Notes under the pieces: model-generated | The model's input: only the letters and a program-made list of their open reading frames with translations | The model's database searches: none | What the model was told of the DNA's origin: nothing | Program-made: the position numbers and the translations under genes | In this document: in pieces, positions 9,207 through 55,549 of the stretch | Layout of the letters: each line of letters begins with the position of its first letter | How positions within the stretch are numbered: the first letter of the stretch is position 1 | Origin: Candidatus Omnitrophota bacterium | GTDB lineage: Bacteria; Omnitrophota; Gorgyraeia; JABMRG01 | Direction: 5' to 3' | NCBI GenBank assembly: GCA_043823785.1 | Contig: JBDRAM010000132.1 | Span: 1-55,558 of the forward strand | DNA: 55,558 nt

Positions 9207-10284
9207 AAGAACAAAAATAGATTCTCCGTTTTTCTCAGTATGTATACCCCAATACAACAGGACTCACTTTTTAATTGAGGCCTGCAAAGTTTTGTCACAG
9301 CAGACCTTTAAGGATTTTGAGGTCTGCATAGCAGACGATAGATCTACAGATAAAAGGGAGCGGGAGCTGATCGATTATCTTGAGGGATCCGGCCTCTCTT
9401 TCTGGTATAAGAAGAACAGGGAAAATCTTAGATATGACGGTAACCTTCGCGCGAGCATATCTATGGCAAGCGGGAAATTCTGTTTTTTGCACGGAAACGA
9501 TGATTGCCTGGCATCGTCCAGTATGCTTGAGGAGCTATCCGAGGCTCTTAAAGGATATGAGGCGGCAGGGGTTGTGATAACAAACTACGAAGACTACAGG
9601 AGCGGTGCTAAGGCCCGCCGCGTGCAGAAAACGCGCCTTGTTGGATCCGGGCCGGAAGTTGCAGCCTCCCATTTTAGAAATCTGTCTTTTGTCAGCGGGG
9701 TTTTGATCGATAGGCCAAAAGCGCAGGCGTATTCTACGGATAGATGGGACGGTTCAGAGATGTACCAGATGTACATGGCCAGCAGGATAGTGGCAGGTGG
9801 CAGCAATCTATTAGAACTTGATATATATACGATCCTAAAAGATATACAGATCCCGAACGAGGCCGTCGATAGCTATGCTACCAAACCAAAGATCAAGGGA
9901 TTTAGTATCGCTGAGAGAAAGATCCCCCTTTCTATGATATGCAGGCTCGTTGCAGACGCCATTAACCCTTATCTTAGAAAAAGAACCGGGCGCAGAATAT
10001 TAGAGTGGGTGGTTTTACAGATCTATCTTTTTACATATCCTTTTTGGATAATAGAATACCGGCGGGTCCAGTCGTGGCCCTATGCCTTAGGCATCTGCAT
10101 AGGAATGAGGCCGGAAAATGTATTTTTGGGCCTGAATATAGGATTATTAAGCACTATAAGGCTTTATTGCCTGTATCTATCTGTTACAATAACAGGGCTT
10201 GTCATGCCTATATCTTTTTTTAAGGCTTTACAATCCAGGCTACATTATATAGCAAAGTCTATGGGCTCAAGGGGTGATAAATAA
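9196..10284 (+). CDS. Glycosyltransferase family 2 with hydrophobic C-terminus
   Basis: 362 aa. GT-A N-terminus FSVCIPQYNRTHFLIEACKVLSQQ...EVCIADDRSTD, with hydrophobic segments near the C-terminus. Confidence 0.7.
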   Translation: METKRTKIDSPFFSVCIPQYNRTHFLIEACKVLSQQTFKDFEVCIADDRSTDKRERELIDYLEGSGLSFWYKKNRENLRYDGNLRASISMASGKFCFLHGNDDCLASSSMLEELSEALKGYEAAGVVITNYEDYRSGAKARRVQKTRLVGSGPEVAASHFRNLSFVSGVLIDRPKAQAYSTDRWDGSEMYQMYMASRIVAGGSNLLELDIYTILKDIQIPNEAVDSYATKPKIKGFSIAERKIPLSMICRLVADAINPYLRKRTGRRILEWVVLQIYLFTYPFWIIEYRRVQSWPYALGICIGMRPENVFLGLNIGLLSTIRLYCLYLSVTITGLVMPISFFKALQSRLHYIAKSMGSRGDK

Positions 10285-34488: not shown

Positions 34489-34969
34489 GCTGGCGTGGCT
34501 TCCTCCTTCGCACTTACTACTGGTTTGCAACTGTAGTGCTACGGAGGACGGGACGCCACGCCGTAAAAGATGAAGCGAGCTGGCGTGGCTTAAATGAGCA
34601 CATAACTTAGCGAGCAAAGCGAAGCTAAGTTATAAGTGCGAATTTATCCTGAGGACACAAAGTGTCCGAAGGATCTTTGATAGGTGCCTGTAATAACAAT
34701 TGATAACTAGAGACACTTCGGTTGCTAAAATGCTCCCAAGGGTTGCATTTTTGACGCAACCTCAGTGTCAAATTTGCACACAAATTTGAGCTGGCGTGGC
34801 TTCCTCCTTCGCACTTACTGCTGGTTTGCAACTGTAGTGCTGCGGCGGACGGGACGCCACGCCGTAAAAGATGAAGCGAGCTGGCGTGGCTTCCTCCTTC
34901 GCACTTACTACTGGTTTGCAACTGTAGTGCTGCGGAGGACGGGACGCCACGCCGTAAAAGATGAAGCGA
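34489..34969 (+). repeat. 90-bp tandem array; each unit starts with nt 1-12 of tRNA-Thr
   Basis: Full units lie at 34489-34578, 34790-34879 and 34880-34969, with 1-3 substitutions between copies. A bare 12-mer GCTGGCGTGGCT lies at 34579-34590. The array is interrupted by a 199-bp insert and runs straight into the intact tRNA at 34970. Confidence 0.9.
34591..34789 (+). other. 199-bp hairpin-rich insert inside the tandem array
   Basis: It is flanked on both sides by the 12-mer GCTGGCGTGGCT. It contains hairpins at 34598-34639 (ATAACTTAGC/GCTAAGTTAT), 34646-34674 (ATCCT-GA-GGACAC-AAA-GTGTCC-GA-AGGAT) and GGTTGC/GCAACC, plus twin palindromes CAAATTTG. Confidence 0.7.
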
Positions 34970-35044
34970 GCTGGCGTGGCTCAACGGTAGAGCAGCGCAT
35001 TCGTAATGCGCAGGTTGGTGGTTCGATTCCACTCGCCAGCTCCA
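34970..35044 (+). tRNA. tRNA-Thr (CGT)
   Basis: 75-nt cloverleaf: acceptor GCTGGCG/CGCCAGC, D arm GCTC-AACGGTA-GAGC, anticodon arm GCGCA-TTCGTAA-TGCGC, variable AGGTT, T arm GGTGG-TTCGATT-CCACT, discriminator T and an encoded CCA. Confidence 0.9.
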
Positions 35045-35178
35045 TCCGCCTTCGCCCTTGTTACTCGGATGCCACTGTAGGGCTTCTGCGGATAAGTCCT
35101 CCGAAGCATTACAGTAGTTTACCAGTATAAAATGCGAAGGAGGACAGGTTGGTGGTTCGATTCCACTCGCCAGCTCCA
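35045..35178 (+). repeat. 100-nt TIR-bounded hairpin element followed by an exact 34-nt orphan copy of the tRNA-Thr 3' end
   Basis: 35145-35178 is identical to 35011-35044 (CAGGTTGGTGGTTCGATTCCACTCGCCAGCTCCA). The element at 35045-35144 is closed by TCCGCCTTCGC/GCGAAGGAGGA. An inner hairpin lies at 35074-35115. Confidence 0.85.
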
Positions 35179-35300
35179 TGTTCAGTTCATCTGTTCAACG
35201 GTTCGTCGGTTCGGTGGTTTATAATTTTGACTGTTGAACGCGTAGTACAAGGCGGATTTTTTAACAGATGAACAGACGAACAGCAGAACTATTTTTTATT

Positions 35301-37940: not shown

Positions 37941-38333
37941 ATGATTAAAAAAAAGATTACAGAGATTAAAGAAAGAGATTCTTTGACTGAAAAAATAATA
38001 GGCTGTTCCTATAAAGTGCATAGCGAGCTAGGGCCAGGTTTTAATGAAGGCATATATCACAATGCTTTAAAGATAGTATTGCAAGAGCAAGGGTTAAAAT
38101 ACCAAAGCGAAAAAAGTTTTGATGTTAGGTATCAAGACAAAGATGTCGGTAGGTTTAGAGTAGATTTAATTATAGAAAACAATGTTATAGTCGAGGTAAA
38201 GGCAATAGCAGGGAATATGCCTATTGTATTTGAAAAGCAGGTCTTGTCATATCTGAAAGCATCAGGATATAAGACAGGACTCTTAATAAATTTTGGTAAT
38301 AAAAGTTGTCAAGTAAGGAGATTAATGTTTTAA
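37941..38333 (+). CDS. GxxExxY protein (PD-(D/E)XK nuclease-fold, PDDEXK_3-like)
   Basis: About 130 aa. It has the eponymous motif GFNEGIY, then D...VEVK (RVDLIIENNVIVEVKA) and a C-terminal GLLINFG. It is inserted between rnfC and rnfD. Confidence 0.8.
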   Translation: MIKKKITEIKERDSLTEKIIGCSYKVHSELGPGFNEGIYHNALKIVLQEQGLKYQSEKSFDVRYQDKDVGRFRVDLIIENNVIVEVKAIAGNMPIVFEKQVLSYLKASGYKTGLLINFGNKSCQVRRLMF

Positions 38334-38398
38334 TCTCAGTAATCTAAATTAATCTGTGTAATCAGGTATAATTTTTAATTATGCTTAATAATTATACC
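38331..38398 (+). repeat. AATCT/GTAATC box module, copy A (two boxes plus hairpin)
   Basis: TAATCTCAGTAATCTAAATTAATCTGTGTAATCA is followed directly by the hairpin GGTATAATT(38365-38373)/AATTATACC(38390-38398). The box part is near-identical to copy B. Confidence 0.85.
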
Positions 38399-42724: not shown

Positions 42725-43930
42725 GTGTTTGGTTTCTTGACTAAATATATCTTATTAATTGATATAGGGACTACAACGATATCAGGCGCTATTTTTGATA
42801 AAGAAAAAGGGCGCGTACTATCCTCAGATTTTATTTTAAATGAGCAGATAAGATATGGAGATGACGTTATATCAAGAATAGATCATGCTCTTAGGAAAAT
42901 CGCGAACGCGGCATCTCTCCAGAGAGCAGTAGTCTTATCTATAAATAAGTTGTCCGGGAAGCTTTTTTCGCAGGCTAAAAAAAGTCACAAAGACATCGGT
43001 TCGGCCTTCTGCGTATGCAATACCGCCATACACCATCTTTTTTTAGGAATAGATACGGCCCCGCTTATTACCCCGCCATACAAGCCGTCTCAAAAATCAG
43101 AGATCACTATATATGCTGACAGAATAGGCCTTAAGCTTGAGAAAGATTGCCCGGTGACTCTACTGCCTAACGTAGAAGGTTTTGTAGGCTCTGACGCTCT
43201 TGCGGTTATTATAGCAAGCGGTATCTATAAATCAAGAGCAGTAAAGCTGGCCATAGACATGGGAACAAACGGTGAAGTAGTCTTGGGAAGCGCGGGGAGA
43301 ATATTTGCAGCGTCTGCCGCGGCAGGGCCCGCGTTTGAGGGAAGGCATATAAGCTGCGGCATGCCGGCTATAAAAGGGGCGATAAAATCAATAGAGATGA
43401 AAGGCGGCTCTTTTAAAATCGATGTTATAGGAGGAGGAGCCCCTAAGGGAATATGCGGCAGCGCCTTGATAGACGCGGCTTCATGTATGCTTAAAAATGG
43501 GTTGATGAACAGCTCAGGCAGGATGAATGAGCCTGAATTTGTATTTTATAAAAAAGGAAGAACCAAGATTTCGGTGACGCAACAGGATATAAGAAAGCTG
43601 CAGCTTGCCAAGGCCGCTATATACGCCGCGGTAAAAATACTTTTAAGAAAATCACGCATAAGCAAAGAAGAGATAACCGAGGTACTCTTTACAGGCTCTT
43701 TTGGCAGCGTAGTGAACACTGATAGCATAGCGGCAATAGGGCTTGTGCCTAAAATAGATAAGAGAAGAATAAGATTCCTTGAAAAAGGCGCGCTTGAAGG
43801 GCTTAAGATTTATGCAGGCAGTCTGTCTTTACAGAAAAAGATCACATCTATATTAAGCAGCATAAAACATATACCGCTTCTTGGCAAGGGTTTTAGCGAA
43901 GAGTTTACCTCGTCTATGTTTTTGGGGTGA
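42725..43930 (+). CDS. ASKHA-fold DUF4445 protein (RACo C-terminal-domain-like), lacking the Fe-S N-terminal domain
   Basis: 401 aa; the GTG start is uncertain. Blocks LLIDIGTTTISGAIFD, AIDMGTNGEVVLG and AAGPAFEGRHISCGM are as I recall for corrinoid-activase-type ASKHA domains. Confidence 0.6.
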   Translation: MFGFLTKYILLIDIGTTTISGAIFDKEKGRVLSSDFILNEQIRYGDDVISRIDHALRKIANAASLQRAVVLSINKLSGKLFSQAKKSHKDIGSAFCVCNTAIHHLFLGIDTAPLITPPYKPSQKSEITIYADRIGLKLEKDCPVTLLPNVEGFVGSDALAVIIASGIYKSRAVKLAIDMGTNGEVVLGSAGRIFAASAAAGPAFEGRHISCGMPAIKGAIKSIEMKGGSFKIDVIGGGAPKGICGSALIDAASCMLKNGLMNSSGRMNEPEFVFYKKGRTKISVTQQDIRKLQLAKAAIYAAVKILLRKSRISKEEITEVLFTGSFGSVVNTDSIAAIGLVPKIDKRRIRFLEKGALEGLKIYAGSLSLQKKITSILSSIKHIPLLGKGFSEEFTSSMFLG

Positions 43931-43936
43931 TCTTAG

Positions 43937-44007
43937 AATCTCTGTAATCTAAATTAATCTTTGTAATCAAGAGATTGTCCTGTGTTTTCATTTTTGAGAC
44001 AATCTCT
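43937..44007 (+). repeat. AATCT/GTAATC box module, copy B
   Basis: AATCTCTGTAATCTAAATTAATCTTTGTAATCA is followed by the hairpin AGAGATTGTC(43970-79)/GACAATCTCT(43998-44007). Confidence 0.85.
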
Positions 44008-44052: not shown

Positions 44053-44180
44053 TAGGGGCAGAATAAAGTATGAACCCCGTACCTCAAGTATAAACAGAGG
44101 TTAAGGGTTAAAATATCTAAAATCAGCAGCGTAGTGGTTATACATAGCCTACTTTTTCTTTAATGTAGAGGTACGGGGTG
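44053..44180 (+). promoter_or_regulatory. Structured purN leader with SD/start-codon sequestering helix
   Basis: ACCCCGTACCTC (44074-85) is perfectly complementary to GAGGTACGGGGT (44168-79), which covers the SD GAGG and 2 nt of the GTG start. GGGG at 44055-58 could compete for the CCCC. Confidence 0.45.
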
Positions 44181-48904: not shown

Positions 48905-48980
48905 GAATTAGAACTTAAGCATTGATGTTTGACATGCAACATACGACGCGGGGTGGAGCAGCCCGGTAGCTCGCAAGGCT

Positions 48981-49621
48981 CAATGGATACAAAGCTCAAA
49001 GCGGATATTGCAGAATCGTCTGTAGTAACTGAACTTCTAAAAAGAGGATTCAGTGTGCTAAGACCTGTTGGAGATCGGCTTTCTTATGATATAGGGATCG
49101 ATCTTAAGGGCAAATTTGTCCGTATTCAGGTCAAGAGCGCTTGGTTCAACGAAAGAGATAAATGCTACGTTGTAGATGCACGTAGAACCAAGACAAACAG
49201 ACGGCGCATGATCAGAAAGCGTTATAAGGCTGATGATTTCGATTTTGCAATTATCCATATAGCTGACTTAAATGTGTTCTATGTTATGCCTCTGACAGTA
49301 TTTTCTAATTATAGAAGCACTGTTACGCTAATAGAATCAAGCAAAAGGCAACGAAAACCTAAGTCAGCATGCTACAGAGAGCGATGGGATTTATTGTCCA
49401 AGGGCCCATTATCCGGTAACGGGTAATGAAAACCTGTCAAATTCGGTGAAACCCTCGATATAAAAATCAGGGCAATACCGAGCCAAGTCCGCACAGGCGG
49501 AAAGGTGTAGAGACTAGTTGGCAGGAATCCTAAGACATTAGGATTATGGTATAGTCCAGACTACGAACATGCGGTACTTTTATGCGCAGTGCAGCATGGC
49601 AGTGAAAACTGTAGTAGTAAG
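48981..49621 (+). mobile_element. Group I intron (IC3-like core) with a homing-endonuclease ORF
   Basis: The 5' exon ends in U and the intron ends in G. The core at 49430-49621 contains CCTGTCAAATTCGGTGAAACC, CCGAGCCAAG, GAAAGGTGTAGAGACTAG and CCTAAG, closely like the Azoarcus tRNA-Ile intron as I recall it. P3 is CCTGTC/GGCAGG and P7 is GACTA/TAGTC. Confidence 0.85.
48983..49426 (+). CDS. PD-(D/E)XK homing endonuclease (I-Ssp6803I-like)
   Basis: 147 aa from ATG 48983 (the track ORF 48929 reads through the tRNA exon). The block AESSVVTELLKRGFSVLRPVGDRLSYDIGIDLKGKFVRIQVKS gives a D...D...QVK nuclease core. It lies inside the tRNA-Met intron. Confidence 0.8.
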   Translation: MDTKLKADIAESSVVTELLKRGFSVLRPVGDRLSYDIGIDLKGKFVRIQVKSAWFNERDKCYVVDARRTKTNRRRMIRKRYKADDFDFAIIHIADLNVFYVMPLTVFSNYRSTVTLIESSKRQRKPKSACYRERWDLLSKGPLSGNG

Positions 49622-49674
49622 CATAACCTTGAGGTCAGAGGTTCAAATCCTCTCCCCGCTACCATTAGCGCTTC

Positions 49675-49755
49675 CGCAGTTACGGAACGAAGTGAACGTA
49701 ACTGCGAGAAACGACTTATGCCCCGTACCGGAGCGAAGCGACTGGTACGGGGCAT
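49675..49755 (+). repeat. Two consecutive hairpins with AGCRA-AGCRA-type loops
   Basis: The first is CGCAGTTACG-GAACGAAGTGAA-CGTAACTGCG (49675-49706). The second is ATGCCCCGTACCGG-AGCGAAGCGA-CTGGTACGGGGCAT (49718-49755). Confidence 0.85.
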
Positions 49756-49776
49756 GCTATTTGGAATACACCAAAA

Positions 49777-55312: not shown

Positions 55313-55453
55313 GTGGTATAACGAAGTATGAAACACCACTAAAAATCTATTAGAGGTTATAGCTAAGTGATTTTTTTGTTTGCTATTTACTAATTCTAAG
55401 CTATAATATAAGCATAACATATATAGGCTGTCGCGAAACTAATTTTAGCCTAT

Positions 55454-55549
55454 GATTACAATGATTTTTAAAAGATTACAGCGATTACCTAGTCGATAAA
55501 CAATCTCCGTAATCTGTCATTTAGTAATCTTTGTAATCAAGGGCGGCAC
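55454..55549. repeat. AATCT/GTAATC box module, copy D (inverted pair of box sets)
   Basis: Reverse-orientation boxes are GATTACAATGATT...GATTACAGCGATTAC (55454-55488). Forward boxes are AATCTCCGTAATCT...AATCTTTGTAATCA (55502-55539). Then AGGGCGGCAC is the presumed 5' hairpin arm, and the window ends. Confidence 0.75.

Follow-up and report, generated by a model that had tools for sequence, protein, structure and literature searches.

A contig of a Candidatus Omnitrophota bacterium (GenBank assembly GCA_043823785.1, contig JBDRAM010000132.1), analyzed over its whole stretch of 55,558 nt (hereafter the window), contains an intact tRNA-Thr(CGT) gene that is preceded by an array of short inserts separated by copies of the first 12 nt of the gene, and is followed by a further insert and a copy of its own 3' part. 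Our results indicated that a ~50-nt hairpin module present on both sides of the gene, named M, represents a family that is associated with tRNA genes and whose hairpin is maintained by compensatory changes, that the layout of tRNA fragment, insert and intact gene recurs at three different tRNAs, and that the 481-bp array upstream of the gene is an insertion relative to the nearest relative. The recurrence at three tRNAs, together with the patchy distribution and the conserved hairpin of M, points to a small insertional element targeting tRNA gene ends. We consider the chances about even that M is indeed an insertional DNA element, small and non-autonomous, that folds into a hairpin and is specific for the ends of tRNA genes within a clade of Candidatus Omnitrophota.

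Direct repeats and inserts at the tRNA-Thr locus

Read on the + strand, the locus has the layout 12-mer, A1, 12-mer, B, 12-mer, A2, 12-mer, A3, tRNA, C and tRNA nt 42-75. The 12-mer, GCTGGCGTGGCT, is identical to nt 1-12 of the tRNA-Thr(CGT) gene and occurs in five exact copies, as the original prediction made from this DNA had claimed: at 34489..34500, 13 nt past the stop codon of a radical S-adenosylmethionine (SAM) gene, at 34579..34590 (the copy described there as bare), at 34790..34801, at 34880..34891, and at 34970, where it forms the first 12 nt of the intact gene (34970..35044; called by ARAGORN, Rfam RF00005 at 68.9 bits, CCA gene-encoded). With one mismatch tolerated, the 55.5 kb hold no match outside these five sites, and shuffled sequence gave a mean of 0.14 matches, with five reached in 0 of 100 shuffles. 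The 12-mers delimit the four inserts A1 (34501..34578), B (34591..34789), A2 (34802..34879) and A3 (34892..34969, abutting the intact tRNA upstream) of 78, 199, 78 and 78 nt, respectively. Each A insert and its 12-mer make up a unit of 90 bp; the three units lie exactly where they had been predicted and differ by one substitution (A1/A3), two (A2/A3) or three (A1/A2), and Tandem Repeats Finder reported a 90-bp period with 98% matches over 34788-34981. The start point of such a unit is arbitrary, and the locus is better described as direct repeat, insert and direct repeat. The original prediction had suggested that RNase P might free RNAs of ~90 nt from tRNA-headed units; this view is too narrow, the 12-mers being more plausibly the direct repeats around successive inserts in the 5' end of the gene.

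The core of every A unit is the module M, located at 34501-34549 in A1, 34802-34850 in A2 and 34892-34940 in A3 and followed by a tail. In A1, M is followed by GGGACGCCACGCC, which pairs with tRNA nt 4-12 of the preceding direct repeat, and then by the 16-nt tail GTAAAAGATGAAGCGA; the end of the A tail reads GAAGCGA. The A units fold at free energies between -39.8 and -45.0 kcal/mol, and their z-scores relative to shuffled sequence range from -2.9 to -4.9 (A1, -39.8 kcal/mol, z -4.05; A2, -40.6 kcal/mol; A3, -45.0 kcal/mol, z -4.87). In the stem, GCCACGCC is paired with the tRNA-derived GGCGTGGC, which bears out the predicted hairpin with a tRNA-derived arm, and in each A unit GCCACGCC could pair with either the upstream or the downstream 12-mer. 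Both of the substitutions that separate A2 from A3 weaken the hairpin.

The 3' side of the gene is built likewise, which the original prediction, treating the array as self-contained, had missed. Insert C (35045..35144, + strand, 100 nt) is fused straight to the CCA end of the gene and folds at -41.5 kcal/mol (z -4.82). It consists of M (35045-35096, + strand) and an inverted M (35093-35144, - strand), and its arm is 78-82% complementary to the three A cores, over a module of ~49 nt. C is followed at 35145..35179 (+ strand) by an exact copy of gene nt 42-75 including the CCA, plus the next T. Insert C has a repeat from the 3' part of the tRNA; the repeats of A1, B, A2 and A3, as well as those at tRNA-Val and tRNA-Phe described below, are from the 5' part. 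Next to this locus, between the 3' tRNA repeat and the start codon of the downstream major facilitator superfamily (MFS) gene, an ACAG-rich imperfect hairpin (GTTCATCTGTTCAAC...AACAGATGAACAGAC, -31 kcal/mol, z -2.8) occupies 35180-35300, and similar GTTAACAG or GACAG-rich stretches are found 3' of tRNA genes in the related loci L010 and L021.

Insert B was characterized by folding, BLAST and a search for inverted repeats. The predicted unit anatomy holds for the A units and does not extend to B, which is not a 90-bp unit and lacks a canonical M. B folds at -65.9 kcal/mol (z -5.85). Its nt 1-19 (TAAATGAGCACATAACTTA) are identical to positions 2049-2067 of L021, directly 3' of a tRNA-Val CCA (BLAST 19/19, E 1.5e-4), so that B opens with another tRNA-abutting palindrome; in addition, 10 nt of B match the left arm of M exactly in inverted orientation (TAAGTGCGAA / TTCGCACTTA). 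A hairpin inside B (34600-34640) and hairpins at 49666-49760, two of which lie directly after a tRNA-fMet 3' end, have variable stems and alike purine-rich loops with GCGAAGC-like motifs (GAACGAAGTGAA, AGCGAAGCGA, GAGCAAAGCGAA); the motif showed no enrichment across the whole window.

Searches for coding or known RNA functions in the array were negative. The open reading frames (ORFs) across it had no relatives among 5.8 billion proteins, in agreement with the earlier view that they are by-products of the repeat, and six-frame translations of A, B and C joined as an artificial protein gave no matches in a protein search. Rfam 15 returned only the tRNA over the locus, other matches at E<=10 being weak chance ones of microRNA type, so that the predicted lack of a known RNA class stands. 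BLAST of the whole locus against phages and plasmids retrieved tRNA matches only, and a promoter scan detected nothing convincing within the array. Unlike an intrinsic terminator, neither A1-A3 nor C received a terminator call, and the M copies of the window are without a T run.

The hairpin family M and its occurrence in related genomes

M spans ~50 nt. Its outer stem comprises 6 bp (TCCKCC/GGMGGA), its inner stem is bounded by GC...GC, its apex varies, and its internal loop, TTC facing TTC, is conserved in sequence. For an alignment of ten copies, RNAalifold predicted 11 pairs, 5 of them with compensatory changes, and from this alignment we built the covariance model R1. At E<=5e-4, R1 recovered 14 M copies in ~270 kb of sequence comprising the window and related Omnitrophota loci, and 13 of them lie within ~200 nt of a tRNA gene. 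In the window, R1 scored A1, A2 and A3 at 68.8, 62.3 and 68.3 bits and the two modules of C at 58.4 and 61.2 bits, and found no M copy elsewhere in the 55.5 kb beyond the tRNA-Thr locus. In the 14-copy alignment, whose fitting to R1 somewhat inflates the pairing, 97.4% of the pair cells were paired and changes on both sides occurred in 24 cells; the observed values were reached in 0 of 500 shuffles, and controls with the partner slid by 1-3 columns were paired at 39-54%. The pair cells include eight T-G wobbles and no A-C.

Ten of the 14 copies are oriented in the tRNA sense and four antisense. By inspection, the 5' end of M is joined directly to tRNA sequence in nine of the ten tRNA-sense copies, this sequence being either a CCA end or a 5' fragment (Thr, 12 nt; Phe, 8 nt plus a 5-nt leader; Val, 17 nt), and in every case with a 5' fragment the fragment is present again at the intact gene downstream. 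Doublets of M and inverted M were found in insert C of the window, at 245-358 of L018 and at 1023-1121 of L026.

The nearest relative is represented by two Logan unitigs from one sample (L001 and L002, with a 30-nt overlap), whose radical SAM and MFS proteins show 83% and 87% amino acid identity to those of the window. In L001, the intact tRNA-Thr begins 19 nt past the radical-SAM stop codon, and A and B units are absent. These units are also missing from L006/L007, L018, L019 and L021-L028; in L006/L007 the flank of the gene, GTATAATATAAAG followed by GCTGGCG, is similar to GTATATATAAAAAG followed by GCTGGCG in the window. Because the tRNA-Thr gene is plain in the nearest and in several more distant relatives, the first 12-mer of the window marks the ancestral 5' end of the gene, with 481 bp added after nt 12.

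The hairpin core recurs at tRNA-Thr, tRNA-Phe and tRNA-Val genes in other Omnitrophota. In L008/L009, where the MFS protein is 65% identical, TCCTCCTTCGC...GGAGGAC-AGGGCGCCACACC comes after an identical 12-mer and leads, through a tail, into the intact tRNA-Thr; the hairpin has a different apex, folds at -53.7 kcal/mol (z -6.7) and is present in two independent assemblies. At tRNA-Val, M comes after nt 1-17, and the same 17 nt recur 104 nt further on at the start of the intact gene, in four assemblies (L010, L011, L014 and L016), and the repeat extends 7 nt upstream, to 24 in total, if one mismatch is allowed. At tRNA-Phe in L026, a 5-nt leader plus nt 1-8 precede an M doublet and are repeated at the intact gene. 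M is directly joined to the CCA end of tRNA-Thr in L002 and of tRNA-Phe in L018, where two tandem 57-nt units and an inverted copy are present. Upstream in L008, another 5' fragment, GCCCATGTAGCTCAGTT, is followed by a TCCGCC...GGCGGA hairpin that is unscored by the model. A tRNA-Thr pattern was detected in metagenomes in L008/L009 only and had zero matches in representative genomes. Homology of the hairpin downstream in L002 to the whole of C was rejected (z 0.08 for the region), only its first 52 nt being M. A second hairpin family, which begins with TGTACCACTC and may be described as a modular tRNA trailer, abuts the CCA end of tRNA-Val (L010, 1869-1900), a tRNA-Asp att repeat (L021, 9641-9655) and tRNA-Phe (L026, 1224-1290).

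These layouts bear on two trivial explanations of the array. A mis-joined or inflated repeat in a metagenome contig is scarcely credible as its source: 90-bp repeats can be misplaced by short-read assemblers, and a scaffold gap lies at tRNA-Val in L023, but the A copies bear distinct substitutions and homologous layouts are identical across independent samples (L008 and L009; L010, L011, L014 and L016), so the risk is limited to the copy number of A. The gap itself (9454-9553 of L023, GCA_964523875.1, Omnitrophota) has tRNA-Val nt 1-53 on either side, which is how repeats of this type would be expected to interrupt the assembly of a tRNA locus. The second explanation takes the array for a neutral product of replication slippage, which the original prediction had itself raised as the scenario that would undo it, or of unequal crossing-over at a palindrome already in place, with no insertion mechanism and no function. 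Long hairpins promote misalignment, and slippage can explain the adjacent, 98% identical A2-A3 pair with its 90-bp period and the similar tandem 57-nt pair of L018. However, it needs and does not create a starting 12-mer/A/12-mer, and it leaves unexplained the insert B between 12-mers, the 3' repeat flanking C, and the layout of fragment, M and intact gene at tRNA-Val and tRNA-Phe in other genomes. As the sole explanation, slippage is already largely refuted by the recurrence at other tRNAs, and we regard it as very improbable.

The conserved pairing could also reflect a functional RNA module that is co-transcribed with tRNAs, the arrays being duplications of that module. M could then act as a leader or trailer hairpin for processing, in 3'-end protection or termination, or as a tRNA-linked small RNA, and the 12-mer would contribute a strand to a stem for which the real tRNA 5' end is an alternative pairing partner. 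Consistent with this, 10 of the 14 copies are tRNA-sense, several begin exactly at the CCA end, the stems covary around a conserved TTC-facing-TTC loop, GCCACGCC can pair with the upstream or downstream 12-mer, and the eight T-G wobbles without an A-C cell suggest pairing within one single strand. Moreover, an M-like hairpin at 1364-1408 of L026 is followed by the T run TTTTTTATTTT, like an intrinsic terminator. In contrast, M is absent at orthologous sites in the closest relatives and is therefore dispensable, its position shifts among tRNAs and genomes, and four copies are antisense, with T-G wobbles that track the orientation of the element and not that of the transcript. The substitutions among A1-A3 weaken the hairpin without compensation, Rfam has no match, the copies of the window lack the T run, and a pure RNA role leaves the exact duplications of tRNA fragments unexplained. 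We consider such a module unlikely.

A loose pattern for the ends of M gave more than 120 mostly random matches in viral contigs, and the few hairpins remaining after the covariance model were not tRNA-adjacent, while exact or degenerate scans of viral contigs for the M core were empty. Mini-hairpins of the form TCCKCC-TTC-GCC..GGC-TWC-GGMGGAC-AAG, some with tandem 5' arms, are intergenic in phage-like IMG/VR contigs (L104, 4277-4359; L029, 1143-1200), and their likeness to M may reflect selection by the M-end pattern; those of L104, L029 and L035 were left out of the family, having been preselected by pattern. A derivation of M from the tRNA D arm was likewise rejected: GGTAGAGC is shared with the M of L018, but within chance given the number of comparisons.

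Proposed insertion at tRNA gene ends

In the insertional reading that we favour, M, either by itself, carrying a short tail or doubled in inverted orientation, would insert in the first 8-17 bp or at the 3' end of a tRNA gene, and the insertion would duplicate the stretch from the insertion point to the gene end. The product would be a tRNA fragment, the insert, and the same fragment continuing into the intact tRNA, so that the gene survives. Since the target would be rebuilt beside each insert, stacking of inserts is explained, by further insertions, unequal crossing-over or both. At the window locus, this process would yield the upstream inserts A1-B-A2-A3, bounded by 12-bp repeats, and the downstream insert C, whose repeat measures 34-35 bp, and unequal crossing-over would account for the near-identical A2-A3 pair and for the tandem pair of L018. 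On this reading, the repeats would be target duplications made at insertion, the three A copies would have arisen by re-insertion or unequal recombination, and M would be mobile, as its patchy distribution suggests. The array itself is probably a passenger of the tRNA leader without any further function.

Several observations weigh against this reading. The length of the repeats varies (12, 13, 17 or, with one mismatch, 24, and 34-35 bp), unlike the duplications of ordinary transposases, and the two ends of the insert differ, M lying on the left and a tail that is not palindromic on the right. The same 12-bp repeats also flank B, in which a canonical M is missing. The scanned ORFs of the window included no transposase, integrase, reverse transcriptase or Cas1. 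The copy number of M is low and dispersed copies were not seen; exact and degenerate scans for the M core were empty in species-representative genomes and Joint Genome Institute (JGI) metagenomes, and the sample of relatives is small. An empty and a filled site within one population were not seen, and the joining of L001 to L002 depends on a 30-nt unitig overlap.

The boundaries between tRNA sequence and M fall at the ends of RNAs: M is joined to the mature CCA 3' end or to 5' pieces ending at nt 8, 12 or 17, and the duplicated 5' segments start either with the first nt of the mature tRNA or a few nt before it, a start that could be that of the primary transcript. It is conceivable, if distinctly unlikely, that the tRNA/M junctions were formed on RNA or cDNA and then copied into the genome, or that M units are tRNA-linked small RNAs released by tRNA-processing enzymes. 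In an RNA or cDNA route, a tRNA or a fragment of one might prime DNA synthesis through its 3'-OH, or a reverse transcriptase might switch templates.

Another origin for the inserts would be a series of tyrosine-integrase elements that integrated in tandem at attachment (att) cores at both ends of tRNA-Thr and were reduced by internal deletions to scars of ~80-200 nt each, M being their conserved end structure. Direct repeats of tRNA end segments beside an intact tRNA are the classical mark of tRNA-targeted integration (PMC9897764, citing Williams 2002). The 34-nt 3' repeat is of typical size for such sites, the differing inserts A and B with their common 12-bp repeat are as expected for accumulation at one att site, and islands with an integrase are present in the same tRNA cluster in the relatives L019-L022. 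However, Pfam scans of 46 window ORFs spanning 1-55 kb detected no integrase, and the genuine island of L021, which has a 17-nt tRNA-Asp 3' repeat at 9624-9640, has no M at its borders. A 12-bp core and three near-identical 78-nt inserts fit amplification of a tiny unit better than independent decay of islands, and tRNA-Thr, tRNA-Val and tRNA-Phe would each need an att-matched element of their own, all decaying to the same M remnant. In addition, att cores at the 5' end are unusual for tyrosine-integrase elements. Taken together, integrase scars seem to us a rather unlikely source of the inserts.

Genomic setting, comparison with known systems and implications

The window comprises, in order, a ~33-kb glycan-biosynthesis cluster, a tRNA-Phe gene, a B12 radical-SAM gene, the array with tRNA-Thr, the MFS gene and an rnf operon. 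Homologues of the MFS transporter downstream of the array are assigned to Candidatus Omnitrophota, and an exact-protein lookup found no entry identical to the radical SAM protein. The tRNA-Phe/Thr locus is a hot-spot of plasticity (window 1-32900 compared with L021, L023 and L027): upstream of tRNA-Phe, the window carries the glycan cluster, and the relatives carry a V-type ATPase operon followed by tRNA-Val and tRNA-Asp. Elsewhere in the window, at 48946-49665, an initiator-type tRNA-Met gene with a C1-U72 mismatch (5' exon CGCGGGGTGGAGCAGCCCGGTAGCTCGCAAGGCTCA, 3' exon ...TAACCTTGAGGTCAGAGGTTCAAATCCTCTCCCCGCTACCA) is interrupted by a ~640-nt group I intron (Rfam RF00028, 49381-49574, 68.2 bits), which contains an ORF for a PD-(D/E)XK endonuclease (Pfam PF11645, 4.6e-41); ARAGORN made no call for this split gene. 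A 40-nt AT-rich repeat, ATGTTTTAATCTCAGTAATCTAAATTAATCTGTGTAATCA, is present in two copies of 88% identity, one in the RnfC-RnfD gap (38325-38364) and the other downstream of the rnf operon, ~210 nt upstream of a formyltransferase gene at 44178 (43930-43969), and a related inverted repeat of the GATTACAA type lies at the window end (55448-55544).

No known class fully accommodates the locus, and literature searches found no account of hairpin inserts that are specific to tRNA ends and come with duplicated 5' tRNA sequence. In their logic, tRNA-targeted integrative elements come nearest, as does Cas1-type integration by analogy; in form, the nearest are palindromic repeats resembling repetitive extragenic palindromic (REP) sequences, their REPIN doublets and miniature inverted-repeat transposable elements (MITEs). 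As in integrative elements, a tRNA-end direct repeat flanks the insert, the intact tRNA is kept, and a reusable site makes tandem accumulation possible. In contrast to those elements, the inserts here are 78-199 nt long and non-coding, with no recombinase and with a hairpin fused to the repeat, and the repeats mostly derive from the tRNA 5' end (8-17 nt), with a length that varies by tRNA.

With MITEs, REP/REPINs, Correia elements and Rickettsia palindromic elements, M shares the character of a short non-coding hairpin family of patchy distribution, and like REPINs it occurs as singles and as inverted doublets (C of the window, L018 and L026). Unlike these miniature repeats, M lies nearly strictly at tRNA gene ends and has a very low copy number, and its duplications are long and variable, neither of the typical 2-9 bp nor absent as with REPs. 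With respect to MITEs, M itself is paired as a hairpin, but the whole insert of M and tail has no terminal inverted repeat; there is no short target-site duplication of fixed length (12, 13, 17-24 and 34-35 bp here), the R1 copies of the window are confined to the tRNA-Thr locus, and a parent element was not seen. With respect to REP/REPINs and their REP-associated tyrosine transposases (RAYTs), the ~270 kb covered hold 14 copies, 13 of them tRNA-adjacent, and the scanned ORFs included no Y1 transposase.

The casposon of A. boonei makes a 15-bp target duplication that abuts tRNA-Pro at its 3' end, and elements with terminal inverted repeats at their borders insert at a site that is reconstituted (PMC5137440). 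Casposon and CRISPR spacer integration resemble the present locus, by analogy only, in their long target duplications and in the resulting array of repeat, insert and repeat. Unlike in casposons, no cas1 or casposon genes were seen here, the duplication length is not fixed and the inserts are hairpins of 50-200 nt; unlike in a CRISPR array, with 23-50-bp repeats and unique spacers of similar size, the repeat is 12 bp and the 'spacers' are 78, 199, 78 and 78 nt long, three of them near-identical. Finally, in the split, permuted and intron-containing tRNA genes of archaea and red algae, tRNA pieces also stand beside complementary sequence; here, TCCTCCTTCGC comes after the 5' fragment and GCGAAGGAGGA before the 3' fragment. 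However, the locus retains a complete tRNA-Thr, neither the D arm nor the anticodon arm is contained in the pieces (nt 1-12 and 42-75), and the host is bacterial, without bulge-helix-bulge splicing. The sequence after M was also considered as a decayed tRNA 3' part, in which case M would have taken the place of a tRNA core in every unit, and this was rejected as unsupported: the tails aligned to it no better than shuffles (p 0.2-0.7), and only the exact 3' repeat of the window scored.

In practical terms, such units break short-read assemblies at tRNA loci and introduce spurious ORFs and tRNA fragments into annotations. Large mobile elements use tRNA genes as landing sites and rebuild the 3' end of the gene, and a ~50-nt hairpin appears to match this without a gene of its own. 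M sits at the 5' end in most cases, involves three different tRNAs and is flanked by repeats whose length varies. If the tRNA/M junctions arose on RNA or cDNA, or if small RNAs are released, this would represent a new bacterial coupling of a selfish or regulatory hairpin to tRNA genes. Should M act at the RNA level, it would add a new structured module linked to tRNAs; should it be mobile, it would represent a 'safe-haven' element of minimal size and a handle for finding an enzyme that recognizes tRNA gene ends in a poorly known phylum.

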